This document shows positions 22,839 through 58,401 of a stretch of DNA of 64,000 nt, in pieces. Origin of the DNA: a virus; the IMG/VR virus record IMGVR_UViG_3300025997_000005; one strand, written 5' to 3'. A program made the translations under genes and the position numbers. How positions within the stretch are numbered: position 1 is the first letter of the stretch; every line of letters starts with the position of its first letter. Under the pieces are notes generated by a model. The model did not search any database. It was not told where the DNA came from and worked only from the letters and a program-made list of their open reading frames with translations.

Positions 22839-22839
22839 A

Positions 22840-25459: not shown

Positions 25460-25718
25460 TAAGATAAATACAAAAATGAAAAGTAACACAGGACAATTGA
25501 TTAGATGTAGAAAATATAATATTAACAACAGCAATAGTAAAAACATCTAACAGTTATTGCTTATACAATTTGTTAGCCCAGTACGCTTTATTAGTAGAAT
25601 TTTAAATTTGGAATATTTATATATAAAATAAAGGACAAATGGAATTGAGAAAATTTATAAAAACAATAATCAAAGAATACTTAATGTCTGGTGCGGATTT
25701 TAAACAAAAAACTTTGAT

Positions 25719-27464
25719 ATGAAAAACGAACGTAGTAATAATATTTTTTTGAGCGAGGGCATTAACGTACTGTCTTTATTTGATGGCATTAGTTGTGGAC
25801 AAGTAGCTTTAGAACGTGCAGGAATTAAAGTAAATAAATACTTTGCTTCCGAGATTGACAAACACGCAATTAAGGTAACTCAAAGCAACCACCCAAATAC
25901 AAAACAGATTGGTGATGTAACCAAAGTAAAAGTAAAATTACTTTACTTATCGGAGGTTTATTCGTATATTTGCAATTATGATAACAATTTACAAAGCAAA
26001 ATTTCCGAATGGGAAATATTATATTGGCTTGACAAGAAATACGCTATGTCAACGAAAGTCGGAACACAAAAGTCGAATGAAGGACAAGAAGTACAAGAAT
26101 TTACCACTTTACAATGCATTGAGGAAATACGGTTTTCAAACAATAGTATGGGAAGTATTACTAAAGGTAGGAACAATACAGGAAGCAGAAAGAATGGAGA
26201 TGAAAATGATTGTAGAAAACCCTTTAAACTACAATGTAGCAGCTGGGGGTATGACTATGAGTTTCACACCCGAAATTTGCAAGAAAATATTAGAGAGTCA
26301 AAAGGGAGTGCCAAAGACAGATATTCAGAAAAAGAGAATATCACAAACATTGAAGAAAAGATTTCAAGACAAAAAGGAGAGGGATTTAATTTCAAAGAAA
26401 ACCAAAGAAGCGATGCGGACTCCAGAAGTGAGAAAGAAATACTTGGAGAGTCGGATGAAGATAGATTACGAAGAGAGGTCAAGAAAAAAGAAAGAGACCG
26501 AAAAGAAGAAGAGATTAATTCTATTGAAGAAATTATCAAAGAATTACAAAGATGGGATGAAGTTGACAAAATTGAAAAGAATTACTGGGATTTCTTACGA
26601 CTTCATAAGGAGGAACAAGTCACGGTGGTTGAGTATGAGGGAGGATTAAACGTATTTAAAGGAAGAATAGACCTTTTATGTGGTGGTTCTCCTTGCCAAG
26701 GATTTAGTTTTAGTGGTAAGCAATTGAACTTTGAAGACCCACGAAGTAAACTATTCTTTGAATTTGTTCGGTTGCTTAATGAAGTGAAGCCTAAATACTG
26801 GCTACTTGAAAATGTGGTAATGAAGCAAGAATACCAAGACGTAATAAGCCAACATTTGGGTGTTGAGCCAGTAAAATTGAATAGTTCTTTAACTTCTGCT
26901 CAAAACCGTGTGAGATTGTATTGGGCAAACTTCGATATTACTGAACCAACCGACAAAGGAATAGGACTTGAAGATATTTTGGAAGATACTGAAATGATTG
27001 GCCCAAGTGCGATACGTGGCAGAAGATTGAATAAAGCCACTATTTTAGGGCGTAGATTAGATGAACTAGGTAAACGACAAGATTATGACAAAACCATACC
27101 AATTACGCAATGCCTTGAAGTAAGAGCAACTAATCGAGATAAAAGTAATTGCCTTACTACCGTAGCAAAAGACACGGTTTTAACGACAATGGAAATAGGG
27201 CGACACCCTGACGCTTTTAATAGGAAATTACCATTTAGGAACTACAATAAAATTGAAAGGTGTAGGTTGATGAATTTGCCTGACAATTATTGTGATGAGA
27301 TAAGTGATAACCAAACAGTAAAAGCGACTGGTAATGGTTGGGAAGTTGGAATGATTACTCACATATTTAACCAAATGGCTGCCCAAGCAGACAAAGAGCG
27401 TGGGGAAGAAAAAAATATTATTACGGCTTATATGCACGAACCATCATTGAAAACGGGAACGTAG
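25719..27464 (+). CDS. DNA (cytosine-5)-methyltransferase with ~240-aa insertion encoded in an alternate frame of a nested endonuclease gene
   Basis: LSLFDG, SEID, GGSPCQ, ENV, QNRVRLYW, GNGW; insert between GDVTKVK and IDLLCGG. Confidence 0.85.
   Translation: MKNERSNNIFLSEGINVLSLFDGISCGQVALERAGIKVNKYFASEIDKHAIKVTQSNHPNTKQIGDVTKVKVKLLYLSEVYSYICNYDNNLQSKISEWEILYWLDKKYAMSTKVGTQKSNEGQEVQEFTTLQCIEEIRFSNNSMGSITKGRNNTGSRKNGDENDCRKPFKLQCSSWGYDYEFHTRNLQENIRESKGSAKDRYSEKENITNIEEKISRQKGEGFNFKENQRSDADSRSEKEILGESDEDRLRREVKKKERDRKEEEINSIEEIIKELQRWDEVDKIEKNYWDFLRLHKEEQVTVVEYEGGLNVFKGRIDLLCGGSPCQGFSFSGKQLNFEDPRSKLFFEFVRLLNEVKPKYWLLENVVMKQEYQDVISQHLGVEPVKLNSSLTSAQNRVRLYWANFDITEPTDKGIGLEDILEDTEMIGPSAIRGRRLNKATILGRRLDELGKRQDYDKTIPITQCLEVRATNRDKSNCLTTVAKDTVLTTMEIGRHPDAFNRKLPFRNYNKIERCRLMNLPDNYCDEISDNQTVKATGNGWEVGMITHIFNQMAAQADKERGEEKNIITAYMHEPSLKTGT
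25978..26649 (+). CDS. GIY-YIG homing endonuclease nested in the MTase gene (+1 frame)
   Basis: TIY...YYIGLT, R..EH, ALRKYG, E, YN; basic NUMOD3-like tail; TATATTTG at 25965-25972. Confidence 0.88.
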   Translation: MITIYKAKFPNGKYYIGLTRNTLCQRKSEHKSRMKDKKYKNLPLYNALRKYGFQTIVWEVLLKVGTIQEAERMEMKMIVENPLNYNVAAGGMTMSFTPEICKKILESQKGVPKTDIQKKRISQTLKKRFQDKKERDLISKKTKEAMRTPEVRKKYLESRMKIDYEERSRKKKETEKKKRLILLKKLSKNYKDGMKLTKLKRITGISYDFIRRNKSRWLSMRED

Positions 27465-27550
27465 CACTTGCAGCTAACGGTTGTGTGTATGAAACGTAGC
27501 CATAGTAAACAGTTGATATAAACCACAGACCTTGATTGGGTATGTTTTAT

Positions 27551-27763
27551 AAAGGAGCGTAAAACCCATTCATCGCTTTAGCGTGAATGGGATGTAAGCG
27601 ACAAAAAGATTTGACTTTTAAAAATAAAGTTGTATATTTTTATTAACTCTGGTTGTGGTATGCAGTCGGAGTATAAACAAAAACGGGATGAGGCGTTACC
27701 ATTAGGTGAGTCTGTGACCCCCGAAGCCCAACCCATCGCCTCTGGCGTGGGTGGGTAGTTCAC
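27551..27763 (+). mobile_element. Non-autonomous IS200/IS605 derivative inserted in an attC arm
   Basis: Near-identical to 8174-8386; follows TTAT. Confidence 0.85.
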
Positions 27764-27890
27764 GTTACATTTAAACCAAATCAAATTAAATCGGTTGATA
27801 ATGATGGAACTTGGGATATTGGGGATAATAACATTTTTTCTTAAATTTGTGTGGTGGGAGAAAAAATAAAACAATGAAAGATTTGAAACA

Positions 27891-28451
27891 ATGAAAGATT
27901 TGAAACAATTTATAAAAACAACGATGCGAGAATTTTTGAATGAGAATAGAGTTTATCATTTATCCGATAATCCAAATTTAAAAATTGATAAAAACTATAA
28001 CCCGAAACAAGGACAATTGGGTAAAGGTTTTTATGTAACAAAAAATATTGATGATTGGGGTATAGAATCTATTGGAAAACGTGATTATATATATGTAATA
28101 GAAAATTTTGAGGAATTAAGAATAGCCAAACCAAATGAACAACCAAATAGGGAACAACTCGTTGATTTTGGAATTAAAAATGGGTTTTATGAAATGGATA
28201 AGGTAATTAAACCTAATGGTGATGTTGTTAAGAATTTAGATGGGAATGATTTAATTAGACCTATTGAAACTGATAAATATAAAAAATATGCAACATATAT
28301 AGACCCGATGACTGGTAGTAGTATTGATTTTTTAGAACAAGAATATTTAAAATCAAAAGGCTTTGATGGCAAAGAACCATATTATAGCAGAGATGGTCAT
28401 CAAATAATTATATGGAATTATGATAAAATCAAATTAAAAAGAATTAAATAA
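27891..28451 (+). CDS. Cassette gene: leader (FIKTTMREFLNE) + ADP-ribosyltransferase-like domain
   Basis: VYH, GKGFYVT, GFDG motifs. Confidence 0.55.
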   Translation: MKDLKQFIKTTMREFLNENRVYHLSDNPNLKIDKNYNPKQGQLGKGFYVTKNIDDWGIESIGKRDYIYVIENFEELRIAKPNEQPNREQLVDFGIKNGFYEMDKVIKPNGDVVKNLDGNDLIRPIETDKYKKYATYIDPMTGSSIDFLEQEYLKSKGFDGKEPYYSRDGHQIIIWNYDKIKLKRIK

Positions 28452-28673
28452 AGTGGGTGGGATTTTCTTTTAAATTTTTCAACCGAAATGTTGGTTAGAA
28501 CGATGAACTGAACACTTACACATAACGTTTTGCGTGTATATGCCAGGTGGCGATTAGAAGCACTTACCTTTCAATTACACAGAATGTTTGATAGAAGAAC
28601 GAATGTTGAATAAACAACAGAACTCCCACTTGCATATATACCTTGTTATAACACGTTTTTAAAAATTAAAATT

Positions 28674-29000
28674 ATGAAAAGAAATATAACCGAAACCCCT
28701 GAAAAGTGGGTAATATTAAAACTATCAAACAATTATTATAAAGTTTTTGGAACTTGGAGTGGTGATTATTTAAATGGTGACAGGTGGAAGTTAAATTCTG
28801 GAATTGAAAAAGTTGAACAAGATGCTGATTTCTATTATTTTATCGGTTTTAGCGGTAGTTGCTACAAATGTCATAAAAAGAGTTATGGAACTGCAACTTC
28901 TTATGGATTAGGTATGTTGAATAAAATAATAGAAGATAGTAATAGTCAGATTGAATTAGTTGAAGATGAGGATATTGATGATTGGTCAAATGGGTGCTAA
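28674..29000 (+). CDS. Cassette gene: phage hypothetical protein
   Basis: PEKWVIL, YYKVFGTWSG.YL.GD.WKLNSGI, GFSGSCYKC. Confidence 0.75.
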   Translation: MKRNITETPEKWVILKLSNNYYKVFGTWSGDYLNGDRWKLNSGIEKVEQDADFYYFIGFSGSCYKCHKKSYGTATSYGLGMLNKIIEDSNSQIELVEDEDIDDWSNGC

Positions 29001-29830
29001 CGTTTAGTGTATGGCAAGTAAGCCACGCACGAAACTATCAAATTACTAATAACTTAATAGAATGAACGAAACTTTAAATAACGCAGAAACCCACCATGTT
29101 TTATACACGGTGTTAGGCACAGTTTTATATCAAATTTGTGCAAAAGGAAAATATGCTTCATTTGATGGAAAAACCAAATATTATAGTAAAAACGCTTACA
29201 TTAACAAACCATCACAAGATGAAATAGATTCTTTTATTGATAAGTGCTGTAACAGTAAACATCCTAAGAATTTATATGATTTGGAAAAGGAAACAGTTGA
29301 AATATTTATTGTTGAATTGAAACTTGCTCGTTAAATAGTGTATAACGGGTTGCATATAACCTAAGTAGCGGACTTTAAAACCAAATGTTGAATATAAAAA
29401 TAAACTTGATATGAAAGAAAAATGGACAATTAACATACCTAACCCGCTATTTTGGTTATATGCTGTTATGTATCGTTTTCATAAGTGTAAATTTGAAAAT
29501 AAATTGTATGATATACCTATGGAAAACAATACAAATTTTCTAGTAACACAATGCAGATGTGGAAAAACTAATATGGTAAGAGCACACAGGGAAAGTGAAA
29601 TGTATAAGGATTGGATTAAATGATACATACCAAGTAGAACAAAATGGGCACTGCGTGTATCAAGGAACTGAAAGTGATTGTAATGAATGGCTTAAATGTC
29701 AGTTAGGGTATTGTGGCTCTCGTGCCGAATTATTAAGCACAAAACTTAATTTGGAACAATAAAGAAAAACAAAAAGAATTTTAGGGTGGAAATTTTAATT
29801 TGGAATATTTATATATATAAAGAAAATACT

Positions 29831-30418
29831 ATGAGTGAGATGAAAAACCATATTAAAACTACCTTAAAAGAATTTGTTGCTAAAATTATTAAAGAAGAAC
29901 TTGAAAATGACACATATGCTTCATTTAAAGGTGTAAAGCCATATAAAGAAAGATTATTAGATTTTAAAAATTCAATAAAAACATTCCACGATTTAGATGA
30001 TGATAAAATATTGAAATGTATTGATTTTTTTGGGTGGGAAGGATTTGAAGATGAAGAAGAAGCTTTTAAAGAATTAAAAGAAAGGGTGGAATTTTATAAA
30101 AAATTACCAAATCCTTCAATAATGTATAGAGCAGTTGGTGTTAAAAATAAAAAACTGATAGACATTGAAAATATTGGGGAACACGTTACACCATATAAAT
30201 GGGCTATTGATGGAGATATGCTTTTAATGATTGGTAGTGAGAACTGGGATAATGATGTAGTGCCTTATATAATGGAACTTAGTGTTCCTTTATCTGAAAT
30301 AGATATTATTCAAACAATAATTCAGAATTTATCATTTCCAAATGAACATGAAATAAATTTGAAAAATAAAGGAAAAGGTGCTAAATTTGTAAAAGCATAT
30401 AAATTAAAAGGTTTTTAA
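29831..30418 (+). CDS. Cassette gene: leader (IKTTLKEF...ELE) + possible ART-like domain
   Basis: ATATTTATA at 29805; MYRAV, IGEHVT, EHEI. Confidence 0.5.
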   Translation: MSEMKNHIKTTLKEFVAKIIKEELENDTYASFKGVKPYKERLLDFKNSIKTFHDLDDDKILKCIDFFGWEGFEDEEEAFKELKERVEFYKKLPNPSIMYRAVGVKNKKLIDIENIGEHVTPYKWAIDGDMLLMIGSENWDNDVVPYIMELSVPLSEIDIIQTIIQNLSFPNEHEINLKNKGKGAKFVKAYKLKGF

Positions 30419-30615
30419 AAGTGCGTTGGGAAAATTCTTTTTGTTTTTCATCACAAATGTTAAATAGAAGGACTGAACTAAGGCATGGAGCATAACGGCT
30501 GCAAATATATTGTCGTTTTAATGCAATATATTTGTTGTTAGCACCAGTACGGTAATTTAAGATAAAACTTGATTAAATGGATAATAATTAGTATATTTGT
30601 AAAAAAAATAAATTT

Positions 30616-30987
30616 ATGGAAAAACAATGGAACTGGTTTGAAAAAACCAATAAAAAAGATGCAATTAAAAATGAGTTACAACCATTAATTACTGAAATGA
30701 TTAGTGATGATGTACAGTGTTTATTTATTAGCCCACAAGTTGGCGTAATTTTAGAAGAGTGTGACAATGTGTTTATAATACCTAATGATGAAATAATCCA
30801 TCATAACGAAAATTTAACCGTAGAACATTTTTTTAATTTTTATAAAAATGATGAGCCGATAAGGGTTTACATTGATAGAAACAAAGAAGATGTTGAAATT
30901 ATTGATTTTCGTGGACATAAAGAAATTGTTAATACTTTAAGAATTGGTAGTGATGGATTTTTTACAAAATATAGCAATAAACTTTAA
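30616..30987 (+). CDS. Cassette gene, hypothetical
   Basis: Own TATATTTG promoter inside body 30537-31018. Confidence 0.65.
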   Translation: MEKQWNWFEKTNKKDAIKNELQPLITEMISDDVQCLFISPQVGVILEECDNVFIIPNDEIIHHNENLTVEHFFNFYKNDEPIRVYIDRNKEDVEIIDFRGHKEIVNTLRIGSDGFFTKYSNKL

Positions 30988-31324
30988 ATCGAAGCACTTT
31001 CGTAGTATTGGTGCTAACGGTTGGGTGTATGAGAAGGTTTGCTTGTATAAACTTTCAAATTACCACACTGTTAATAGCAAACTTTCTTATACACCTTGTT
31101 ATAACCAGTACGGTAATTTAAGATAAAACTTGATTAATTGGAAAATAATTAGTATATTTGTAAAATAATGAATTATGGAGAATAGAAGAATTATTAAAGT
31201 AGAAGTTCCAAAAGAAATTTGGGATGCACATATGTCTATTTTTAATTTTAGAAAAGATATATTAGGTGCTTGGATGGAAAGCGTTAGAAAAGTAATTAAC
31301 GAAATGACATTAACAAATTAATTT

Positions 31325-31654
31325 ATGGATAATAGTTTATTAATATTTGGTAATGAAAAACAAAATTACACTTCAGATATATTTTATATTGAAAATGATA
31401 ATGTTTATTTTACCGAAGTAAATGTTTTTAAATTAAACGGAAACATCTACGCAATAGATGATACTTGTAAAGTAGATAGAAATGATATAGTTGATGGAAT
31501 TAACAATGGTGATGATGTTATAATTAAGATAGATAGTTCTTTTTTAGTTGCAGTTATAATACCAAGGAGTTTAGAAACCAAACTAAAAAACGCAATTGAT
31601 AATGAAGATTATGAATTAGCAAAAATAATAAATGATAAAATTAAAAACAAGTAA
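31325..31654 (+). CDS. Cassette gene with C-terminal UVR (UvrB/C) motif
   Basis: LKNAIDNEDYELAKIINDKI. Confidence 0.7.
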   Translation: MDNSLLIFGNEKQNYTSDIFYIENDNVYFTEVNVFKLNGNIYAIDDTCKVDRNDIVDGINNGDDVIIKIDSSFLVAVIIPRSLETKLKNAIDNEDYELAKIINDKIKNK

Positions 31655-33036
31655 AATGGAAAATTTAACAATTAAAATCACTATTAGTGATGATGAAAAA
31701 GAAATCAAAGCTACAAACATCAATGTGGGTGATTATAAAAAAACTAAAGACTTACATGGTATCTCTTTGGTTGATGAAATGGTTAATGAATTATTATCTA
31801 CAATCGAAGCGGATAAGTAGTATTGGTTATAACGTATCGGTTGTATGGTTAGTGCGATTTAATAATAATAAACTTTAATGAAATGACAGAAGCAGAGTAA
31901 ATATTCGAAAAACACATTGGGTTAAATACTGAATTAGGTTATTTGCCTTTTGAAAGACGAACCTTTTAATTATTAACCGCCCTTTTTCTTTTATTTTTTT
32001 TGAGCGTGGGCAAATGCTTGTAAAAGCAATTATTTACAAAATAATTAAAATATTTTGCTTTTTTCTTTGGTAGTTACAAAATAAGTTATATATTTGTAGT
32101 GTAATAATTAATTAATAACAATTTAAAACACAAAATTATGAAAACTTTACATTACATCTTAAACACAAAAACAGACGAAAGCTTTGATACAATAGAAATG
32201 AAATTTTATCCTAATAATTGGGAACCTGAAATGGAAGAGGATAAAGATTATTTACAAAGCTTAATTGACGAAGACCCAGAAAAATTTAAAAACTGTATAA
32301 TCGAAACAAGAACTTTTGAATAATGGCTTACTGGTTTTTAAATAAGCAAACAAAAGAGCCGAGAATATTCTCGACTCTTTGCCTGTTATGTGTGAAGAAA
32401 TTACTGAACTTGATAAGCAAAGTTTAGAGTACCATTTTAGCAGACTGAAAAAAGAAGAATTTGAAAACGATAATTACAGAATTGTTAAGCGTAATCTTGA
32501 GAGGGGTGGAAAAAAATAAAAGAAAAAGATTAGAAGCACTAAACGTTGATACAGCACGGAATTAGGCATAAACTATATACCGTGTTGTGCAATCGTTTTA
32601 ATGTTGCACAACGTTTTTCGGCTTGGTGTCTGTTATTTTGCCTTGCAGACATTTCAAGTTTTAGATAAATTTAATAGGTAAAATAATAGCACCAAACCGC
32701 TGTTAGTGGCTGGTGCGGTAAATTAAACGAAAATGAAATTTCATAAAACAAAAGATGGTAAAAAAATTAAGTTGACTGATTTAGAAACGAATCACTTGAA
32801 AAATATCATTAAATGGATTGAACGGAAAGCAAAGGAAGGATTAACGGTAGGAATGGGCGGTGGCTCGTGTGCTGAAGATATGTGGTATGATGAGGAAACT
32901 TATTATGGCAAAGAAGCTAAAAGCCAACTTAATTTTTCAGACTACAAAGCTGAATTGAAGCGGAGAGTTAGCACTTGCCACTAACGTAGATAGGCTATGA
33001 ATAGTAAGGCGATTTTAAAACACAAAACTTTGAATT

Positions 33037-33225
33037 ATGAAATGGATTAAATTAAAAGACCGAAAGCCATCTTGCGAGATTGATGGTGAAAAGATGTTGG
33101 TTTACAGAATAATGAATGAAAGCCAAGCGAGTATGGCAATAAGCATCCTTGATACGAAGATGATTAAATACAGTAATGAGGATGAAACTTGGTGGATGGC
33201 TTTACCTGATGAACCACGAACCTAA
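33037..33225 (+). CDS. DUF551-like small protein encoded inside an attC loop
   Basis: WIKLKDRKP...WWMALPDEP; lies between hairpin arms at 32982 and 33247. Confidence 0.65.
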   Translation: MKWIKLKDRKPSCEIDGEKMLVYRIMNESQASMAISILDTKMIKYSNEDETWWMALPDEPRT

Positions 33226-34494
33226 GCCTTATTATTTATAGCCTTTGTTGTAAAATCGTTTTAATGTTTTACAACGATTTGCAGCTAACCGAAGTTGGCG
33301 ATTACGAAGCACAAAACTTGAATTTAAAAAAAATGTATAATCGAAGCATAAACGTTGATATAACCACTGAACCGCCAATTTTGGTTAGGTGCTGTTATAA
33401 GCCGTTTTTCTTCACAAATTTTAAATAAAATGTATAATAAAATACCAGATAACAAAGTAAAAGAAGCTATAAAGGATTATAGTATTACCAAATTGAAATT
33501 ATTTATAGATGCAATGGATATAGCTAATGAAAAAGCAGAAAGAGGTTCAGATGTTCGTTTCCAAACTTATGATGCTAAACAAGTAGCTATCGACTTGCTT
33601 TATGAAAAGACGTGTAGTTTCTTAAATGGCTTATAACGGAAAAATGTAAAAAATCGTTGCGATATGAATGAAGAACTATTTGGAAAACTGCACGAACAAG
33701 AAGAATATGGATTGTTTGGGAAGGAACACGAACGCCAGCAATGTTTTTTACATAGTGTTAGCACCAGTGCCTACACGAAATTAAATATTAAAACTTAAAT
33801 AAAAATACAATGGCAAAAACAGTAAAATTACCCGATAACATTTCCGAAGAAGAATTAGTAAGGCTTTCTAAAATGAAAGAACTTTATATGACATACACCA
33901 ATGAAGGATTAAAAGATGATGAGTATGAACAAATGAGGCAATTAGCAGAAGAATTATCTTACTGTTTTGCTGTCGATACGAAGGTCTGATGGCATTGGTG
34001 CTAACGGTTTGCAGATAGGCGATGTGGCGGATTTTGGAACGCTGAACTATCTGTAAGCACTTAACTTGATTTGAAACACTAAACTTAATATTAACCGAGA
34101 AACCCGCCATAGTGCTGTTATGTGCTGGCCTTCTCAAAAACTCAAATAGAATGATAAACAAAATAATTGAAATCGCATTTAGTGGCTTTTGGCCATTTGT
34201 AGGAATGATGATATTACTAAACGGAGCGGCCTATTTTGCTGTAAACGGTTTGGTAAAAATGTGGAGCAGGTTTATGAGAATGTTAATGGTTAGGAAACAT
34301 GGTTGGCCGCCTATTCATTTAGATGCTGATGGCGATTGGAAACCTGAGCCAAAAGCTGACTATGACGCTAATTAGGCTTGCACATAACGGTTGCAAATAT
34401 AAAACGTTGTAACAAAAATTATAATTAGTGTAACAAAATTTGAAATTAAACGTATAATATAATTGAAAAACGACAGCAATGTTTTATATTTGTT

Positions 34495-49300: not shown

Positions 49301-49749
49301 ATATTGTTAGTGTAAATGTTTGCTAACGTTTTGCAAATAAAAACAGTAAAAGATATGAAACGACAAATTTTAAAAATAGCAGATGAACTTGCCAATGATG
49401 TAATAACTACGGAACAGGCAAAAAACCTTTTATTGGTTTTATTTGATGTTAGCCACAGTACTTCTTACTTAGATGATAAGTACGAGGTTAAATGGCTAAT
49501 AAATAATACATACCAAGTAGAACAAAATGGGCACTGCGTGTATCAAGGAACTGAAAGTGATTGTAATGAATGGCTTAAATGTCAGTTAGGGTATTGTGGC
49601 TAACGTGCCGAGTATATGAAATGTAGCGTGTAAACAGCCGAAAAGCAACGATTAAGAGCTGAATTAAATAAATAGAATATTAACCAAGTGGGAAGCGAAA
49701 ACAGCTATATTTTATATACTGTGTTACCCACTTTTAAAAATAGCGGTAA

Positions 49750-50052
49750 ATGAAAGCTAAACTAGAAAAATATAACGGAATTGATTACTTGACTTTTAAA
49801 GTAAATGAAGAAATTGGATTAACACAACTTCCTGTAATTACAAAAGGAACACGAGAAGGCACAAATGCTTGGACTTGGAACGGTGATTTGGAAAAACCAA
49901 CACTAAGACCAAGCGTAAGAACAGGCTACTACAATGGTAAAGAAACGACGGAAATACATTACTGGCTTAATGATGGAATTGCTGATTGCTTGGGCGATTG
50001 CAAAGATGGAAATGCAGGTAAAAAACTTGCCTTAATGGAACTCGAACAGTAG
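49750..50052 (+). CDS. DUF6527-like protein (cassette)
   Basis: WTWNGDLEKPTLRPSV, H.WLNDG. Confidence 0.7.
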   Translation: MKAKLEKYNGIDYLTFKVNEEIGLTQLPVITKGTREGTNAWTWNGDLEKPTLRPSVRTGYYNGKETTEIHYWLNDGIADCLGDCKDGNAGKKLALMELEQ

Positions 50053-50701
50053 CCATTTTTTATTGTGGCTAACGGTTGCGTGTATATTCAGGTTTGCTTG
50101 TAGAGACCTTGAATTATGCACAAATGCTGATGCAAACTTGAATATACACGTTGTTATGCTCTCGTTGCGGTAAATTTACTCAAACCCTTCAATCGAAGCA
50201 CTAAAAACATTTTTATTCTTTTGTGTGATGGGGAAAATAATTATATTGATTATCAACATATTAGAAAATATATTGAAAATATTTGCAAATTTATTAGGTA
50301 ATTTGAAACAAAAGTATTACCTTTGACGTATAAATTAATAAACAACTTAAAATTTAAAGGTATGACAAATTCAGAATTAAACAAATTATCAGTTGCTGAA
50401 CTTAGGGAGTTAAGAAATAGAGTAACTGAAATGCTTCAATTGAAAATGCAAATTGAAGGTAAATTAAACAAGGATGTTTTAAAATTTGGTATGACCGTTA
50501 AATATATTGGTGGTCGTGATAAAATTAAAAACGAAACTTTTGTAATCGAAAGAATTAACAAAGTGAATGCTGTTTGTAAAAGTAATGTAGATGGAAGACG
50601 TTGGAATATTAATATTGCAAACATTCAACCATGTGAAGATTTAATAGAAACAATGGGAGATGATAATTATGAACCAGAAAGTGGTTTCCAAAAATAAAAT
50701 T

Positions 50702-50887
50702 ATGGCAAAGCGAATATCATTAAAATTAACTGACAAAAATGATTGGTTAGTTGAAGCAATAAATAAGGAAATTGATGAAACGAATAGACCATCATTTAAT
50801 AATATGGTTGAAACCATTCTTGTTTCTTATTTTAAAGCGAAGGAAGAAAAGAATAAAAATGTTACCACAAATGCTAATTCGGAGTAG
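50702..50887 (+). CDS. Small ribbon-helix-helix protein closing a cassette
   Basis: KRISLKL...SFNNMVETIL. Confidence 0.6.
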   Translation: MAKRISLKLTDKNDWLVEAINKEIDETNRPSFNNMVETILVSYFKAKEEKNKNVTTNANSE

Positions 50888-50942
50888 TTCCTTAGCAATG
50901 GAGCATAACGGACAATAATAAACAATCGTAAAATTATGACTT

Positions 50943-51209
50943 ATGAAAAAATTTAAAGGAAGCAAACACTCACATGCTAAATGGGTGGCAGAAGAATTAT
51001 TTAATGAGATGCAAAACACAGTTGATGAAGCAGCAGAATTGTTTGCTTCTGATATTTATAGCATAGCCAAGTGTTGCTCTTATAAAGCTATTGAACTAAA
51101 TAAACTAGCAGTTCTTGACGGATGGGGTTATAAAGAGGTTTGTAATCAAACACAAGAGCAACACGACTTTTGGGAACTCGTGAAATCATATTTAGATGAC
51201 ATTAAATAA
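50943..51209 (+). CDS. Hypothetical protein encoded inside an attC loop
   Basis: Between arms at 50906 and 51230; followed by a 29-bp empty body. Confidence 0.7.
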   Translation: MKKFKGSKHSHAKWVAEELFNEMQNTVDEAAELFASDIYSIAKCCSYKAIELNKLAVLDGWGYKEVCNQTQEQHDFWELVKSYLDDIK

Positions 51210-51864
51210 TTTTATGTTGTTTATTTATTGTTGTGGTGTCGTTTTAATGCAGCACAACGTTAAGTATATGGCAAGTTGGGGATTAAAATGTGCTACCCTT
51301 TTAATTTGCAGAAAAGTAAATTAAAAGCACAAATGTAGTTTATTGGAATTGCGCCCCAATTTGCTATATACATTGTTAGGCGCAGTTATTTTTAAAATTA
51401 TGACAACAAAAAAATTAGTGAACTTAATGATGAAATCTTCTGACCACAATCCATATACTGGTAAGCTGTCAGAAAGTGCTAATGTATTGGCTGCAATAGA
51501 ACTTGCAAAAAAGTTTAAGGAATTTGCAGACGAAGTATATACAGACGAGGCAATGGGTATTGAAAGCAGCCAATGGGTTGAAGTGATAAACAAACTTGAA
51601 GAGAAGCGACTTAATTGCGCCTAACGGTTGGGTGTATATGTAGTAGTGGATAGAAAGAACCGAGCTTTGATTAACCACTGAACTTCATAGAAACAACTAA
51701 CGTTGATTTACAGATGAAACCACCATTACATATACACCTTGTTATGACCAGTACGGTTTATTTACCACAAAACTCGATTAGAACCACTGAACAAAACTTT
51801 TTAAAAATGTGCGGTGGGAAATTTAATTATGAATATTTATATATAAGATAAAGTATTTACTTAT

Positions 51865-52341
51865 ATGGAAAACGACAAATTAAGAAGTTTTATAAAAACG
51901 ACAATCAGAGAATTTCTAAATGAGAATGTTAAAGGTAAAACAATATACCATTTTACTGATGGTTTGGATTCATTATATTCAATTTTGAAAGGTGACTCAT
52001 TAGAATCTGGTTCATTTAATGGTATTTATGGTAAAGGATATGATAATATTTCCTTTACTTGGAATCCAAAATTATGGGATATTGAGTATGCTGGTGATAG
52101 CAATGGTAGATATAATGCAAGAATATCATTTGACTATGGTAGAATTAGTCAGAAATGGAATTTTAAACCATTTAATTACGGTATAGATGAGGAAATGGAA
52201 GAAATAGTTGAAACTGATGAAATGCACGGAATTGTTGCATATATTACAGAAATTCTTATTAGTGATGAAGAATCTATGTTAGAGATTAATAATTTGAAAC
52301 GTTCTTATCCGAATTTAAATATTAGAACAATTAAAAGGTAG
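51865..52341 (+). CDS. Cassette gene: leader (FIKTTIREFLNE) + ART-like domain
   Basis: ATATTTATA at 51833; IYHFT, L.SIL, ISFT, EMEE. Confidence 0.55.
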   Translation: MENDKLRSFIKTTIREFLNENVKGKTIYHFTDGLDSLYSILKGDSLESGSFNGIYGKGYDNISFTWNPKLWDIEYAGDSNGRYNARISFDYGRISQKWNFKPFNYGIDEEMEEIVETDEMHGIVAYITEILISDEESMLEINNLKRSYPNLNIRTIKR

Positions 52342-52466
52342 GAAATTTTTAAAAAGTTTTGAAACAAAAACCCAATTAGAACGTATAATATAGTATTGGT
52401 CATAACGTATCGCAGATATGGAGTCGATTTTTTACGGATTTAAAACACACTAAAATAATTATTATT

Positions 52467-52712
52467 ATGAGAAAAGAAGAAATACTTAGGAAGCATTTTA
52501 AAGTTGAATTTGGACACGAGGGACATGGTAAATTTATGCAGTATATTTTAGCAGCAATGGATGAGTATGCAAAACAGGAAGTAAAAAAATGCTCTATACC
52601 TGCTGTTGTAGGGAGAAGCGAACAGTTAAAATGCGAACACAAAGGGCGCAGAACAGCAACTGAACTCGTGGAATATTGCGAAGATTGCAAAAAGATACTT
52701 TTCCATCCGTAG
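52467..52712 (+). CDS. Loop-to-body fusion ORF with the same zinc-finger module as 40522
   Basis: Near-identical 3' half, unrelated 5' half. Confidence 0.75.
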   Translation: MRKEEILRKHFKVEFGHEGHGKFMQYILAAMDEYAKQEVKKCSIPAVVGRSEQLKCEHKGRRTATELVEYCEDCKKILFHP

Positions 52713-53726
52713 CATTTTAATTGCCTACAACGTTGAGTATATAATTTCGTTGTTGCTTAACAGCACGACACTAACAAAATAAGATAAAGATGAAGAAAGC
52801 AAAAAGAATCCAAAAACGCAGAACCCACAACAATGAATTATATACATTGTTAACTACTGGCGTTTTACAAGAACTTAACTTTAAGGACATTGGACAGAGT
52901 GAATTTGAGTTATTTGAAAACATGAGTTATTGGATAAAGAATAGTATTTGCCTATTCTATAACACCCCAATAAATAAAGATTGGCAAGATAGCTTTTATA
53001 TAGGATATGCTGAAATGAGGCAAGGCAAATACGTTGCTGTTACTTTTAGATGGATTGATAGTGTAGAAGAACTAACTCAAATTTACGAGAGTATAACACG
53101 AAAGAAAATAGATGAGCCGATTTAACGGTTGTAGTTAACGGCTGGCGGTATGAAAAGTTGCGTTTTTAACCGCACGAACTTCTACTAACCGATGAACGTT
53201 AAATAAATGTAGAAACTTAAATATTAACCGCTGACCCCGCAATTTTTTATGACCGCTTGTTATAGTGCGTTTTCTGCGGGTAGGCATTAAAACTAATAAA
53301 ATGGCAAATTTATATGTAAAAGAAATTGGATTGCTTAATATCAAAGAAAGCAAAGAGGAAGTTTTAATTGAGCTAAAAAATGAAAATCCTGAGTGGGCTG
53401 AATATACAGTTATAGAAAGTTTTTATGGTGAAATGAGCGGAAAAACTCACACAAATGAAAAACTATTAACTATACGAACAAGAAATATAATTGCAGTTGA
53501 ATAGTGCGGTAGGAAAATGCACTATAACGGTTGGGTGTATGAGAAGGTTTGCTTGTAGAAACTTTCAAATTTACCACTACCGTTGATAGCAAACTTTCTT
53601 ATACACCTTGTTATGCTCTCGTGCCGACTTATTAAGCACAGAACTTGATTTGAAATACGAAAGAAAAACAAAAAGAATTTTAGGTGGATTTTTTTAAATT
53701 TGAATATTTATATATAAAAGAAAACA

Positions 53727-54236
53727 ATGAATGATTTGAAAAAGTTTATAGCAACCACAATAAGAGAATATTTGAACGAAACTTCAAAATCTATTGTAAC
53801 TTATAATAATGATACTGTAATTAAGAAATTTAATGACAAATATGAATTAGAAAATACTATTAAATATTTTCCAAACCATCCTAATTTATTTCCTATAATT
53901 TATAATATTAATGGAGACGAAATAGAAATTGAAAGATTAGATACTAAAAAAGCAATAAAAGAATTTAATATATTAAATAATTGGTTTAAGAAAAATCTTA
54001 AAATATCTTTTGGTTCATATTTAATGAGAGATTATACTTTCAAACATATCTATCCAGATAGACCATATCCGAAATTACCATCAGATTTTCCAAAAGAATA
54101 TAAACAAATACTTGATAAGTATCAAAAACTAATTAATGATATAATGAAAATTGTTGGTAAATATTTCTTACTTGATGTTCATTCATTAAATTTTGGATAT
54201 GATAAAAATGGAAATTTAAAAATGTTTGATATTTAA
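53727..54236 (+). CDS. Cassette gene: leader (FIATTIREYLNE) + protein kinase-like domain
   Basis: ATATTTATA at 53704; VIKK, DVHSLNFG catalytic-loop-like, MFDI. Confidence 0.65.
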   Translation: MNDLKKFIATTIREYLNETSKSIVTYNNDTVIKKFNDKYELENTIKYFPNHPNLFPIIYNINGDEIEIERLDTKKAIKEFNILNNWFKKNLKISFGSYLMRDYTFKHIYPDRPYPKLPSDFPKEYKQILDKYQKLINDIMKIVGKYFLLDVHSLNFGYDKNGNLKMFDI

Positions 54237-55587
54237 AAAATATTTAGTATCTTTGTTGTGTGTTGGTAAAATTCTTTTTGTTTTTCATCACAAATGTTAA
54301 ATCGAAGAACTGAACTAAGGCATGGAGCATAACGACTGCGTGTATGTTGTCGTTGCGGTAAATTAGTATAAACTTTAATAAATGAACGAAATGAAAAAAC
54401 TTTGGAAATGGTTATTTGGAAAACGAAAACAGCAATGCAATATACACGATGTTGTGTGTAGTGCGACCACTGAAAGGAAACCAAACCCATATATGCTGTT
54501 GTGGTATAAACAAGGTTGGAGTGAAAAAAGAATTGCTATTAATAACTCAAAGTATTGGAAATGGGAGATAGACCACAACGGTTTTCGTCCATAGCATTAC
54601 ACACAACGTTGGTAATATGAAAAGTTGGCTTTGCAGCCACTTTCAAGTTACCAAACAGTTTGATAGCCAATTTTTTATATTACGTGTTATCGCTTCGGGT
54701 TTTATTAATCTTTTAAATTAAAATATATGATAGTCAGAATTAAACTAAAATCAAAAGGAGAAACATTCACAATGATGTTTGGAAATTCTTATAAAAATTG
54801 GGAAGAGCAATTTCGTGAATATTGCTTTACTTTCAAACCAATAGAAATAATTCAAATTGAAACATCTCCTGAAAAATGGAAAGGTTGGGGAGGGTTGAAG
54901 TGGTGCAATGAAACAGAGTTTCAACACGAATTAAACCGTGAGGGTTGTCAGCAAAATGAACCAGATAATCCTAAACCAAGAAAGTATGAATATATGAGAT
55001 TCAATTCAAATCAAATTGTTTCAAATATTGCCAATAAGATTGCTCGTAGGTATCTTTAACCTGAGCGATAACGTTTTGTGGCTTTGTGTCTGTTATTTTG
55101 GCTTGCAGACACTTGCCTTTAAAGATAAATTTTATAGCCAAAATAATAGCACAAAACCACTGTTAGTGGCTGGTGCGGTAAATTAAACGAAAATGAAATT
55201 AACAGAAGAACAATTTAATGAGCAGTATGGTGAAGCAAAAGTTGTTTTCGCCTATTATTACAAGTATTCATTCTCATTTGTGGGTGAATTTGAAGGTAAA
55301 ACGATAAATATTAGTGTAGGTGGCAACGCTGATGATATTTATAGATTTGATGTTGAATCTAACAAAGAATATCAAGTAAAGGAATTAGGTATTAATTATG
55401 CCACCGTAAAAGAAGGCGAAACAACTATTGCTGAATTTACAGACGGATGGTAGCACTTGCCACTAACGGACAGGTATATGAAAAGTAGCCTGACCACAAA
55501 CTTTGATATTATGCACCGAACTTTCATAGGCTATTTTTTATATACCATGTTAGCTGTCTGGTGCGGATTTAAACGATAAACTTTGAT

Positions 55588-56421
55588 ATGGAAAACGAAC
55601 GTAGTAATAATATTTTTTTGAGCGGTGGCAAAAATGGTTTTGAAAAAACCAAGAACGTTCTTTGGTATGGAGAATGCCTTCAGTTAATGAAACAGATACC
55701 CGACCAAAGCATAAACCTTATTTGTTGTGATTTGCCGTATGGGGTGACTAAAAACAAATGGGATTCATTAATTGATTTGGATTTACTTTGGAAGCAATAT
55801 GAACGGGTAATTATTGAAAATGGTGCAATAGTTCTTTTTGGGCAGGATAAATTTTCTGCAAGGTTGATGCTCTCAAATGAAAAGCTACACAGATATAATT
55901 TGGTATGGCAAAAAACAACACCAACTGGACACTTGAATGCTAAAAAAATGCCTTTGAGAAGCCACGAAGATATATTGGTGTTCTACAAGAAATTACCGAC
56001 CTATAACCCACAAAAAACAACAGGACACGAAAGGAAGGTAAGCACCGCAAAGCATAAGCGAAACTCGAAAAAGACAACCAACTATGGTGAACACGGACTT
56101 ACTACCTATGATAGTACTGAACGATACCCAAAAAGTGTTTTGACTTTTGCAACGGATAAACAGAAATCTGCATTACACCCAACACAAAAACCACTGGAGT
56201 TGATTAAGTATCTTGTAAGAACTTACTCAAATGAAAATGATTGGGTACTTGATAATACTTGTGGAAGTAACACTACTGGTCTTGGTTGTTTTGAATTAAA
56301 CCGAAACTATATTGGAATTGAAAATGATTTTGATATGTACGAAATTTCAAAAGAGCGGGTGGGAGAAAAAAATATTATTACGGCTTATACGCACGAACCT
56401 TCAATTAAAACGGGAACGTAG
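55588..56421 (+). CDS. DNA amino-methyltransferase (N6-A/N4-C, beta class; cassette)
   Basis: DLPY, HPTQKP, VLDNTCGSNTT, YIGIE. Confidence 0.92.
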   Translation: MENERSNNIFLSGGKNGFEKTKNVLWYGECLQLMKQIPDQSINLICCDLPYGVTKNKWDSLIDLDLLWKQYERVIIENGAIVLFGQDKFSARLMLSNEKLHRYNLVWQKTTPTGHLNAKKMPLRSHEDILVFYKKLPTYNPQKTTGHERKVSTAKHKRNSKKTTNYGEHGLTTYDSTERYPKSVLTFATDKQKSALHPTQKPLELIKYLVRTYSNENDWVLDNTCGSNTTGLGCFELNRNYIGIENDFDMYEISKERVGEKNIITAYTHEPSIKTGT

Positions 56422-56734
56422 CACTTGCAGCTAACGATAAAGCTAAACACCGTCTGAGGCGGATAAATAATGAAAACTATGATAATAGAACTAACAAAAA
56501 CAGAAACACGAGCCTTGAAATGGTTGCTTCATAAAGGCATGGAAATAACCAAGAGCGACCAAAAATACGAGGTGTTTGATGCTTTGAGCCAACGACTAGC
56601 CTCAGATGGTGATTTAGCTGATGTTGTAGGGCGAAGCGAACAGTGCGCCCATCCGAGAGATAAGCGTGAGTATATAGGCTCTAATATGCTTAGATGTAAA
56701 GTTTGCGGCAAAGAGTTCAGTTAGGGCGCATTGC

Positions 56735-56770
56735 CTACAACAACACTTATACACAATATATAAAAACGTC
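56735..56770 (-). promoter_or_regulatory. Putative attI-like site
   Basis: Last core CTACAAC is not followed by G or a hairpin; minus strand reads TGTGTATAAGTGTT-GTTGTAG; directly upstream of the integrase ATG. Confidence 0.55.
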
Positions 56771-56791
56771 AATAAAAACAACAACTTTAAA

Positions 56792-57601
56792 ATGAATTTG
56801 ACAGAATTACGTAAAAATTATGACAGGTATTTAACATTAAACTACGATGCTCAAAACACTATAGAAGCATATACAAATTGTTTTGAGAAGTTTATTTTTG
56901 AGAATAATAGGGTTTATAGAATGTCAAAAATAGATTTGGAAAATTATTTTATGGAATACACTAAACGGTACTCAAATTCTTATTATAACCAAATGTTATC
57001 CTCGGTCAACATAATATATAAATTGCTTGGACAACCTTTCAAGTTAAAAGGTATTTCATATAAAAGAGTAATCGAAAAACCTATTGACATACTATCAAAA
57101 AACGAGTTGATAGAAACGTTCAAATCAATTAAAAATCTAAAACATAAGGTTATCATATCTGTTTTATATTTAGGCGGACTTAGGGTTTCGGAATTGTTGA
57201 ATATGGAACTACGGAATATTGATTTTGAGAATAAAAGGATTTTAATCAAGTCCTCTAAAAATAATATTTCAGGGTATTTCCCAATAAATGATAAGTTTGT
57301 TAAGACACTTAGTGAATATATTGAACAATATAGCCCTTCAAAATACTTAGTTGAGGGGAGAAGTGGTGTTAAGTACTCGGCTACTTCTGTCAGGAATATA
57401 GTTAAAAACAAAATAAAGAGTGGAAAAAGATTATATCCCCACCTACTTAGGCACACCTGTTTGACCAATTTAGTTGATGAAGGACACAATACAGTGAAAG
57501 TTCAGGTTTTTGCAAGACATAAAACACCTAAATCCACACAACGATATTACCATATAAGCAACACAGCACTTCAAGGTATGACACTTTCTCTTAAACCATA
57601 A
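56792..57601 (+). CDS. Tyrosine recombinase (putative array integrase)
   Basis: GLRVSE (R), KSSK (K), HLLRH, ARH, TQRY (Y); SAM-like N-terminus with SYYNQMLSSV; no IntI-specific insertion before HxxR. Confidence 0.93.
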   Translation: MNLTELRKNYDRYLTLNYDAQNTIEAYTNCFEKFIFENNRVYRMSKIDLENYFMEYTKRYSNSYYNQMLSSVNIIYKLLGQPFKLKGISYKRVIEKPIDILSKNELIETFKSIKNLKHKVIISVLYLGGLRVSELLNMELRNIDFENKRILIKSSKNNISGYFPINDKFVKTLSEYIEQYSPSKYLVEGRSGVKYSATSVRNIVKNKIKSGKRLYPHLLRHTCLTNLVDEGHNTVKVQVFARHKTPKSTQRYYHISNTALQGMTLSLKP

Positions 57602-58386: not shown

Positions 58387-58401
58387 AAGCATACCTTTTA
58401 A

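Follow-up and report, generated by a model that had tools for sequence, protein, structure and literature searches.

Integrons capture gene cassettes at folded attC sites by means of the tyrosine recombinase IntI. In this study, we describe an integron-like array of small gene cassettes in the genome of a large marine phage (IMG/VR record IMGVR_UViG_3300025997_000005). About 31 kb of the analysed stretch of 64,000 nucleotides, referred to as the window, is made of roughly 50 small gene cassettes, each bounded by a folding hairpin site. The array ends beside a small Xer-like tyrosine recombinase. This is the layout of a bacterial integron, but with a different enzyme as the candidate recombinase, and related cultured phages differ by whole cassettes inserted exactly at the corresponding site. 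Clusters of attC sites without an integrase were already reported in phages in 2023 (PMC9892861), and one of those sites belongs to the hairpin family described here. A large array tied to a non-IntI recombinase and an attI-like site did not turn up in our literature searches. Catalysis has not been shown, and the assignment of the recombinase to the hairpins is inferred from association and from the position of natural breakpoints.

Results

Hairpin sites of the array

An anchored scan for AAC/GTT stems, together with a covariance model built from 13 of the elements, revealed 50 strict elements between 28524 and 56625, in addition to an interrupted one and some degenerate or miniature ones (Table 1). 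The original prediction of about 62 attC-like cassettes was therefore somewhat high but of the right order. The elements are imperfect hairpins of the form flank-AAC, bulge, 19-22 bp stem, loop, stem, GTT-flank, and they separate small + strand genes. With filters off and E up to 1, the model hits only 27469-55558 of the window. Hits on the + strand are strong, whereas those on the - strand are the same loci at far lower scores. The same strict scan gave 2 hits in about 230 kb of upstream DNA (both strands) plus about 120 kb of downstream DNA from 24 loci with unrelated integrases, 1 upstream and 1 downstream, so the density in the array is not due to chance.

The stems covary strongly. In the seed alignment, 15 of 19 stem pairs show compensatory changes. 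On 67 model hits, 94% of cells are paired as compared to 66% in shuffles, and the covariation score is 0.627 against 0.158, with slid controls reaching at most 0.098, although this alignment was fitted to the model. The + strand folds better in 36 of 45 elements (p = 2e-7) and one G.T position is near-invariant, a strand asymmetry as in attC. However, a G.T bias on the transcribed strand is also what an RNA structure would show.

Table 1. Coordinates of the array and neighbouring features in the window.
Position	Strand	Feature	Remarks
25548..56741	+	Whole cassette array	Borders of the original prediction; clear model-supported elements run from 27469 to 56625, last cassette ends at the AAC at 56739-56741; left (distal) end not sharply defined
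25548..25580	+	Miniature AAC...GTT hairpin	At the predicted left border, from reading of the sequence; weak, membership in the family uncertain
25719..27464	+	Cargo: C5 DNA methyltransferase	Pfam PF00145; roughly 240-codon insert relative to its paralogue at 40937
27469..27568	+	First model hit	5' arm followed by a 218-bp repeat also present at 8169-8386; looks interrupted
28524..28647	+	Hairpin site (AAC to GTT)	
28999..29114	+	Hairpin site	
29344..29467	+	Hairpin site	An ORF starts in its loop (29411)
30494..30539	+	Miniature hairpin	46 nt, with the 11-nt loop TCGTTTTAATG
31016..31100	+	Hairpin site	Best model score (95.5 bits); example given in the original prediction
32610..32704	+	Hairpin site	
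33247..33275	+	"Empty cassette"	GTT + 6 nt, the 11-nt TCGTTTTAATG, 6 complementary nt + AAC; second copy at 43481-43509
33273..33396	+	Hairpin site	
33635..33759	+	Hairpin site	
34386..34497	+	Hairpin site	
34609..34721	+	Hairpin site	
34930..35054	+	Hairpin site	
35866..35950	+	Hairpin site	
36173..36283	+	Hairpin site	
36486..36611	+	Hairpin site	
36940..37061	+	Hairpin site	
37281..37367	+	Hairpin site	
37601..37646	+	Miniature hairpin	46 nt; the ATG in its loop starts ORF 37628-37828
37843..38038	+	Long-loop hairpin site	196 nt
38149..38272	+	Hairpin site	
38454..38509	+	Short hairpin site	
39801..39920	+	Hairpin site	
40087..40171	+	Hairpin site	
40473..40662	+	Long-loop hairpin site	190 nt
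40787..40873	+	Hairpin site	
40937..42022	+	Cargo: C5 DNA methyltransferase	Pfam PF00145
42331..42453	+	Hairpin site	
42729..42810	+	Hairpin site	
43507..43631	+	Hairpin site	
43855..43941	+	Hairpin site	
44501..44621	+	Hairpin site	
46325..46449	+	Hairpin site	
47226..47312	+	Hairpin site	
47553..47636	+	Hairpin site	
47937..48058	+	Hairpin site	
48312..48397	+	Hairpin site	
48661..48773	+	Hairpin site	
49057..49170	+	Hairpin site	
49325..49450	+	Hairpin site	
49602..49725	+	Hairpin site	
50071..50155	+	Hairpin site	
51256..51377	+	Hairpin site	
51623..51743	+	Hairpin site	
52404..52607	+	Long-loop hairpin site	204 nt
52729..52851	+	Hairpin site	
53137..53261	+	Hairpin site	
53526..53612	+	Hairpin site	94% identical to 31016-31100; similarity begins at the AAC and ends at the GTT
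54331..54453	+	Hairpin site	
54605..54688	+	Hairpin site	
55070..55164	+	Hairpin site	
55465..55551	+	Hairpin site	
55588..56421	+	Cargo: N6/N4 DNA methyltransferase	DNA-level similarity to methyltransferases of Polaribacter, Tenacibaculum, Flavobacterium and Cellulophaga phages
56433..56625	+	Last hairpin	193 nt; ORF 56470-56724 starts in its loop and reads through the GTT
56739..56791	+	attI-like site	Terminal AAC followed by a stretch conserved in four phage lineages; single copy in the window; conservation between variants starts at this AAC
56792..57601	+	Tyrosine recombinase	269 aa, Xer-like, full set of catalytic residues, no IntI insertion
63154..63161	+	Second breakpoint against variant contig L045	At an ATAAC motif; may be a secondary recombination site; unexplained

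Structure of the cassettes

As proposed in the original prediction, gene bodies are closed by their own inverted repeat. The 6 nt after the GTT of one element match the reverse complement of the 6 nt before the AAC of the next perfectly in 21 of 45 pairs and at 5 or more of 6 positions in 29 of 45. Random pairs are perfect 1% of the time, and the two flanks of one element match each other no better than random. With 50 elements, 33 of 49 neighbouring pairs have at least 5 of 6 matches, while 16 of 49 lack complementary flanks. The perfect repeat including the core is most often exactly 10 bp, not 9-20 bp as first stated. The same flank complementarity holds in the arrays of two relatives, L014 and L008.

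Each cassette consists of one hairpin site plus the gene or genes downstream of it. On the + strand it reads C of the AAC core, bulge, long stem, loop, stem, GTT, 7-nt flank, payload, complementary 7-nt flank, AA. Blocks of paralogous sequence within the array start within 3 nt of an AAC in 13 of 54 ends, against 0.9% expected. Moreover, ORFs start in hairpin loops, and the array ends at an AAC with no hairpin after it. In a circularised cassette the two flanks would close into a 10-bp outer stem, giving a complete two-stem hairpin with an asymmetric internal bulge and the G.T mismatch. In contrast to the original reading, the crossover is placed at the 5' AAC of the + strand. Read in integron convention, the ORFs are antisense.

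The recombinase and the attI-like site

The array ends at an AAC located 50 nt before the ATG of the recombinase, which faces away from it. The enzyme is Xer-like, scores below the IntI model cut-offs and, as originally noted, lacks the IntI insertion. The sequence after the terminal AAC is conserved in the window and in the related loci L002, L014 and L006, while everything before the AAC is unrelated. Recombinases 42-58% identical to that of the window carry the same hairpins upstream on the same strand (L002, L008, L014 and L015). That the contig is a phage is inferred from phage-type genes in the window and from relatives that carry terminase, portal and capsid genes, since no structural gene lies in the window itself.

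Natural variants

Relatives do not have a fixed gene order, and closely related phages carry different cassettes with breakpoints exactly at the AAC core. L002 and a further locus, L004, are 100% identical rightward from the AAC of the last hairpin and unrelated leftward, and L004 carries a superoxide-dismutase cassette with complementary flanks. The variant contig L045 carries the identical recombinase, is 99.94% identical over 3.4 kb, and diverges from the window exactly at the AAC of the attI-like site, although the payload next to this site in L045 has no GTT partner on its contig. L002 and L014 share a backbone at 91-94% identity but have wholly different arrays that end at the attI-like site.

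The clearest case is provided by the cultured Polaribacter phages Freya_1, _2, _5, _8 and _10, which differ only by whole cassettes inserted or excised. They carry 0, 842, 1744, 4040 and 4942 nt, respectively, inserted exactly after the AAC that lies 48 nt before the integrase ATG. Freya_1, _2, _5 and _10 form a nested series, and Freya_8 has a precise 902-nt excision between two AAC cores. The Freya integrase is, however, only 25% identical to the enzyme of the window and our covariance model does not detect the Freya hairpins, so this evidence applies by analogy.

Discussion

Every structural part of the integron analogy that could be tested in sequence holds. We consider it probable that this is a cassette-capture platform of the integron type, carried by a large phage of marine Flavobacteriia and run by a small Xer-like tyrosine recombinase rather than an IntI. 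In the mechanism we infer, the recombinase would bind the folded + strand of the hairpin site and the double-stranded attI-like site just upstream of its own gene, cut within or at the AAC and exchange strands, thereby inserting, excising or reshuffling cassettes. Read on the opposite strand the layout is the classical one, with the recombinase gene pointing away, then attI, then the array, and the + strand of the window playing the integron "bottom strand". The cassette genes, however, are antisense to the classical direction and co-directional with the rest of the phage genome, so they would be expressed by phage read-through or by their own promoters. That this recombinase is the catalyst, that the substrate is folded single-stranded DNA and where exactly within AAC the cut lies are inferences, and without read-level data no circular cassettes or junction reads have been seen. 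Published work treats these enzymes as lysogeny integrases (PMC8776804), and a double role cannot be excluded.

The array might instead be a cluster of genuine attC sites without its own integrase (a CALIN), captured from or serviced by a cellular integron integrase of the host, with the neighbouring Xer-like gene unrelated to it. Phage CALINs exist, and several phage attC sites are recombined by IntI1 (PMC9892861). HattCI called one family member an attC, and Polaribacter phage P12002L has at least 5 such hairpins and no annotated integrase beside them. Still, we regard this reading as unlikely. The one family member tested by others, P12002L_attC1 (L009:10513-10573, L009 being the P12002L locus), was the only one of six phage sites that IntI1 did not integrate. 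Arrays in at least six phage lineages end at a conserved site directly in front of a recombinase of the same broad type, the 24 loci with unrelated integrases yielded only the 2 hits mentioned above, and no IntI-type gene was seen in the window among the ORFs tested.

It appears still less likely that the hairpins are mainly RNA-level signals in a long polycistronic transcript (processing sites, stabilisers or weak terminators), with genes shuffled by homologous recombination between repeats, as proposed for the PeSL motifs of T4-type phages (PMC2839356, PMC4122927), and an ordinary lysogeny integrase that happens to sit there. In favour of this, the hairpins lie between co-directional genes, the stem of about 22 bp including the core may suit a double-strand-specific RNase, G.T pairs are strongly biased to the transcribed strand (73 against 7), ORFs and translation starts sit in the loops, and Bartlau et al. 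read the integrases as markers of a temperate lifestyle. Yet homologous recombination between direct repeats cannot create unique 7-nt flanks that are complementary across each gene. Breakpoints are at one nucleotide position, the AAC, and not spread over the repeat. Moreover, the Freya insertions sit exactly between the AAC and the conserved site in front of the integrase, a platform that is empty in Freya_1. An RNA role may well coexist with recombination, but it does not explain the anatomy. Least likely of all are miniature inverted-repeat or REP-like elements moved by a transposase, for example an IS200/IS605-type enzyme acting on hairpins. A TnpB (IS605 OrfB) gene does lie at 22840-24072, copies of its end are repeated in the window, and hairpin ends are probably typical of that family. 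However, no Y1 (HUH) transposase was found among the ORFs tested, and no TnpB-family gene is annotated in the hairpin-carrying loci of L002, L008, Freya and Leef (L014 was not annotated). The mobile units are genes bounded by AAC cores and not the hairpins themselves, the orientation is strictly uniform, and the arrays are tied to one site.

Among known systems, integrons are closest, especially sedentary chromosomal integrons with homogeneous attC repeats such as the Vibrio cholerae repeats. Shared are hairpin sites with AAC/GTT cores, two stems separated by an unpaired bulge and conserved mismatches, structure that is conserved while sequence varies, complementary cassette ends, and an array abutting a single site next to a tyrosine recombinase gene that faces away from it. 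In addition, one strand folds better, the inferred cut lies at the 5' AAC of that strand, the attC-like sites within one array resemble each other, and the cargo is mostly small genes of unknown function plus DNA methyltransferases. Different are the recombinase, which lacks the roughly 46-residue insertion that carries the I2 helix, the outer stem of 10 bp instead of 7, the antisense cassette ORFs for which no common Pc-type promoter is needed, the frequent start of ORFs inside the hairpin loop, and the phage genome as host.

The attC clusters reported by Qi et al. 2023 (PMC9892861), including that of P12002L, share a family member and methyltransferase cargo with the present array. In that work, 2-3 sites per phage, no associated recombinase and no attI were found, and the sites were interpreted as bacterial integron parts carried by phages. 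Here there are about 50 sites, with a dedicated candidate enzyme, a conserved attI-like site and natural insertion series. The PeSL promoter/stem-loop motifs in hyperplastic regions of T4-type phages likewise flank small accessory genes in a plastic region of a large phage and mark the borders of gene gain and loss. They are thought to act through homologous recombination and as promoter/terminator units, and have no AAC/GTT cores, no complementary cassette ends, no single insertion site and no recombinase.

Integration of the CTX filamentous phage by XerCD probably provides a precedent for a Xer-type enzyme without the IntI insertion using a hairpin of single-stranded DNA as a recombination site, although there a whole single-stranded phage genome is integrated into the chromosomal dif site by host enzymes, not an array of gene cassettes. 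Archaeal XerA (PDB 4a8e, 5hxy) and bacterial XerC/XerD are the best sequence matches of the recombinase, of the same size and two-domain build and aligned end to end without large gaps. Its scores lie far below the equivalog cut-offs (136 against 220 bits), and its gene context is a phage cassette array, not chromosome dimer resolution.

Genomic setting and cargo

The window carries co-directional small genes, nine or ten tRNA genes, two sigma-70 paralogues, PRPP synthetase, a dNMP kinase split by an HNH endonuclease, tRNA-repair-type enzymes and a TnpB gene. No ribosomal or other housekeeping genes were seen, and no virion genes lie in the window. Phages with related recombinases carry terminase, portal and capsid genes just downstream. 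Together with the phage-type methyltransferase described in the table, this makes a large phage of Flavobacteriia a reasonable inference, although it is not shown. A JGI contig (L007) confirms positions 46792-64000 at 99.94% identity and with the same cassette order.

The array of the window carries three DNA methyltransferases. Most other ORFs have no Pfam or PHROG match. Relatives carry SOD, a thioesterase, HNH endonucleases and a restriction-enzyme gene. Moreover, a recombinase 58% identical (P0006 contigs) lies in a crAss-like phage with an MUZ protein nearby and is preceded by small genes, a C5 methyltransferase and an HNH gene. The system may reach crAss-like phages.

Features of the window, of a variant contig and of two Polaribacter phages
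Sequence	Position	Feature	Observation
Window	4609-5484 and 20730-21584	Two sigma-70 family paralogues	84% DNA identity over 250 nt
Window	8169-8386 and 27546-27763; also 58417-58442	218-bp repeat, 97% identical	One copy in the tRNA-rich region, one inside the first hairpin of the array, as if inserted there; a 26-nt piece recurs inverted near the tRNA-Lys at 58.4 kb; may be a small mobile element or a structured RNA
Window	18013-19620	dNMP kinase reading frame	HNH/NUMOD4 endonuclease domain in its middle; looks like a homing endonuclease fused into or inserted in the kinase gene
Window	22835-24072 and 60016-60150	TnpB (IS605 OrfB, Cas12f-like) gene, - strand	The 102 nt at its end are repeated 100% identically, inverted, at 60049-60150; contig L045 ends exactly at that repeat
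Window	25719-27464 and 25978-26649	C5 methyltransferase	Long insert relative to its paralogue at 40937; the out-of-frame 223-aa ORF inside it gave no Pfam match at E up to 0.01
Window	27469-55558	Range of hits of hairpin model R1	No other hits in the window
Window	29716-30517 and 53615-54354	Two units with the same shell and different payloads	Outer 100-130 nt shared, including a 20-bp inverted repeat that encloses the gene; different genes inside (210 and 169 aa)
Window	55588-56421	Methyltransferase	Resembles those of Polaribacter, Tenacibaculum, Flavobacterium and Cellulophaga phages at the DNA level
Window	56739-56791	attI-like site	From the last AAC to the start codon of the recombinase
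Window	56792-57601	Xer-like tyrosine recombinase	269 aa; Phage_integrase and SAM-like domains (Pfam PF00589 and PF13495)
Window	63230-63360	Iteron-like repeats of about 22 nt	Three copies, two of them near-identical, in a non-coding stretch downstream of the recombinase module; could be an origin or an operator region
L045 (variant contig) and window	L045:1-1318 and window 63154-63554	Reverse-oriented gene matching HindVP restriction endonuclease	Profile positions 1-277 of 332; joined to the reverse complement of window 63159-63554, with the junction at an ATAAC motif
L009 (Polaribacter phage P12002L)	10513-10573	Hit of hairpin model R1	Identical to P12002L_attC1
L050 (Polaribacter phage Leef_1, MT732473)	5835-7986	Three hairpins of this family	Complementary neighbour flanks; an AAC followed by a site resembling that of Freya lies about 60 nt before the integrase gene

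Hairpin elements

Reading of 28.4-34.5 kb showed intergenic elements which begin with AAC-G and end with T-GTT, with complementary arms. An ungapped comparison of the arms missed nearly all of them, since the 5' side has a bulge of 4-6 nt and the 3' side of only 1-3 nt. A scan anchored on AAC and GTT that allows the bulge found them densely from about 28 to 57 kb. Thirteen elements of about 87 nt align well, and RNAalifold finds 19 stem pairs, 15 of them with compensatory changes. A covariance model with the AAC/GTT pairs added (R1) was run with filters off. The + strand scores 60-95 bits for the seed class, and the - strand hits the same loci at about 20-32 bits. With 67 hits from the window and three relatives, 94% of cells pair against 66% in shuffles and the covariation score is 0.627 against 0.158, while slid controls reach at most 0.098. 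This alignment is fitted to the model, which favours it. One position is G.T in 59 of 65 sequences and is never a Watson-Crick pair. Element lengths fall in classes near 46, 85, 95, 112, 124 and 190 nt. With DNA parameters the + strand folds better than the - strand in 36 of 45 elements (p = 2e-7), and G(5' arm).T(3' arm) outnumbers the reverse 73 to 7. Rfam has no matching family, and a paper on conserved MITEs (PMC11602168) does not treat these elements.

Complementary cassette ends and position of the crossover

For each element, the 6 nt before its AAC were compared with the 6 nt after its GTT and with the flanks of its neighbours. An element's own flanks match no better than random (mean 2.37 against 2.28 of 6). 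In contrast, the flank after GTT of element n is the perfect reverse complement of the flank before AAC of element n+1 in 21 of 45 pairs, and matches at 5 or more of 6 in 29, whereas random pairs are perfect 1% of the time. With 50 elements, 33 of 49 pairs pass. The perfect repeat including the core is 10 bp in 19 of the 33 passing pairs, and payloads are 110-881 nt. A leftward walk along the chain of cassettes from attI broke at duplicated flanks, and neighbour statistics are therefore reported instead of a full cassette chain. The pattern is what results when a circular cassette with one complete hairpin site is opened within the outer stem and inserted.

Four observations place the crossover at the 5' AAC of the + strand, so that a cassette is the hairpin plus the gene after it. 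In two TARA contigs (L002 and L004) that are 100% identical for more than 700 nt, identity starts at the AAC of the last hairpin and everything upstream differs. Blocks of paralogous sequence in the window start within 3 nt of an AAC in 13 of 54 ends (0.9% expected) and often run past the GTT into the next gene, while other blocks end at an AAC. Several ORFs start in a hairpin loop and read through the GTT. Finally, the array ends with a flank plus AAC and no hairpin. Crossover at the 3' GTT of the + strand was considered and rejected, because the identical hairpin in L002 and L004 has different upstream genes, ORFs run from the loop through the GTT and the array ends in a bare AAC. Turned over, this is the integron layout, with the recombinase pointing away, attI, the array and a cut between G and TT. 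The + strand of the window then takes the role of the attC bottom strand, which is also the better-folding strand here.

Recombinase and attI-like site

The best curated model for the recombinase is archaeal XerA (XerA_Arch), with 136.5 bits against a cut-off of 220. XerC scores 77 against 335 and XerD 76 against 330. Of the integron-integrase models, TIGR02249 scores 72.4 bits against a cut-off of 265, covering the N-terminal half only, and NF011946 scores 32 against 435. The best solved structures are XerA and an XerC-like protein, aligned end to end. Against VchIntIA (2a3v) the family profile aligns in two pieces, jumping from position 176 to 185 where VchIntIA runs from residue 180 to 235, the region of the IntI insertion. 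XerA structures align without this gap. The residues we read as the catalytic set (R131, K156, H217, R220, H243 and Y252) are invariant in 19 homologues. The enzyme is a simple two-domain Xer-like tyrosine recombinase and not an IntI.

The attI-like site is conserved in the window and in the related loci L002, L014 and L006, whose enzymes are 51-57% identical. The DNA before the AAC is unrelated in each. The motif occurs once in the window, and scanning IMG/VR for it gave only four chance matches, none next to a recombinase. In L014 the unit next to the site is an 'empty cassette' with the 11-nt TCGTTTTAATG between complementary flanks, a unit also found twice in the window.

Hairpins of this family lie upstream of the recombinase gene, on the same strand, in L002/L004/L005, L008, L014 and L015, and some of their neighbours again have perfect complementary flanks. 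A strict version of the scan found 9, 2, 3 and 1 elements upstream in L014, L015, L002 and L008, and 2 in the cultured phage Leef_1, but none on the opposite strand or downstream in these loci. In 24 loci with unrelated integrases it found 1 upstream and 1 downstream. A profile search of genome contigs with the family alignment found nothing, and the corresponding search of metagenomes found only four loci.

Natural variants

L004 has a superoxide-dismutase cassette with complementary flanks where L002 has other genes, and both share the next unit, which carries a 4HBT thioesterase. L002 and L014 share replication and packaging modules at 91-94% identity, yet the 4.4 and 6.5 kb between a conserved gene and attI have nothing in common. 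L045, from another metagenome, has the identical recombinase and 99.94% identity over 56738-60150, and departs from the window exactly at the attI AAC. Upstream it has the HindVP-like gene, which matches over most of the profile, followed by the inverted stretch of the window. We could not reconstruct this rearrangement. A prophage-host junction was rejected for L045, since its left part is 100% identical to window 63159-63554 in reverse orientation and is thus not foreign host DNA. A mobile 6.4-kb unit (56739-63158) flanked by short direct repeats is not supported by the relatives, in which the recombinase sits in the conserved phage backbone.

The cultured Polaribacter phages Freya_1 to Freya_10 have record lengths from 43,978 to 48,920 nt, and the integrase position shifts accordingly. 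Of these, Freya_1, _2, _5, _8 and _10 were compared. In Freya_1 the last backbone gene is followed by a flank, an AAC and then a conserved stretch 48 nt before the integrase ATG. In Freya_2, _5, _8 and _10 there are 842, 1744, 4040 and 4942 nt inserted exactly after that AAC. Each insertion begins with G plus a hairpin arm and ends with a new flank plus AAC. Freya_1, _2, _5 and _10 form a nested series that shares the part far from the integrase. Freya_8 lacks exactly the 902 nt between two AAC cores of the Freya_10 array, and its junction joins the left flank of one to the hairpin of the other. The Freya integrase is only 25% identical to the enzyme of the window, and model R1 does not detect the Freya hairpins, which were found by direct comparison and by the scan. 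This shows the principle in a wider group rather than in this phage. The paper that described these phages reads the integrase as a sign of a temperate lifestyle and, in the passages searched, does not mention the array.

Discussion

The anatomy and the natural variants, which are indirect evidence, make site-specific cassette exchange at the AAC core very likely. That the neighbouring Xer-like enzyme performs it is likely. That it acts on folded single-stranded DNA is plausible from the covariation, the strand asymmetry and the fixed mismatch, but no direct evidence supports it as yet. Neither a regulatory hairpin nor homologous recombination between repeats predicts the complementary cassette ends. 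An added role of the hairpins in RNA is nevertheless not excluded.

Current thinking holds that gaining the I2 helix is what let IntI move from double-stranded sites to folded hairpins (PMC7790495, PMC8138268). A recombinase without that insertion tied to an attC-like array would show either that the hairpin-cassette solution arose more than once or that it can work with a simpler enzyme. It would also give phages their own engine for gaining and losing accessory genes one at a time, which could explain part of the plasticity of large marine phage genomes and the orphan methyltransferases they carry. We consider it slightly more probable than not that a family of small Xer-like recombinases lacking the I2 insertion runs a true hairpin-based cassette capture system in many phages of marine Flavobacteriia, through which phages trade accessory genes such as methyltransferases and other host-takeover or anti-defence genes. 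In this reading, the system is either an independent invention of the integron principle or a picture of its ancestral state before IntI acquired the I2 helix. It is present in cultured phage-host pairs (Polaribacter phages Freya and Leef).

Clusters of attC sites without an integrase are already known from 17 phages, and five of six tested sites were shown to be integrated by IntI1 (Qi et al. 2023, PMC9892861). Their P12002L_attC1, a hit of our model R1, carries the same 11-nt loop and was the one site that IntI1 did not integrate. HattCI did call one family member in P12002L. P12002L has at least five R1 hits flanking methyltransferase genes, and no integrase is annotated in the stretch examined. 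Integron-detection tools that require IntI would label all of the arrays described here as integrase-less clusters. We found no report of a non-IntI recombinase tied to attC-like arrays in phages, although the literature searched was not complete.

The PeSL motifs of T4-type phages are the nearest phage-specific analogue for modular shuffling. In PeSL-type regulatory cassettes a conserved promoter and stem-loop form one unit and the borders of indels are spread within the repeat, whereas here borders fall at one position, the AAC, and the Bacteroidetes-type promoter motif that we read in some cassettes lies outside the hairpin. The recombinase has the two-domain build and catalytic residues of simple tyrosine recombinases but remains below the equivalog cut-offs of XerA, XerC and XerD. 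With IntI-based integrons the array shares hairpin sites with AAC/GTT cores, conserved in structure and variable in sequence, complementary cassette ends and an attI-like site next to the recombinase gene, inferred to be the point where cassettes enter. It differs in that the enzyme does not pass the integron-integrase models and lacks the insertion described as essential for integron function (PMC8138268). Moreover, integron cassette genes are oriented away from attI and expressed from a common promoter, whereas nearly all cassette ORFs in the window point towards the recombinase, antisense to the classical direction, which is found only in a few cargo genes of relatives (4HBT, SOD, HindVP fragment).
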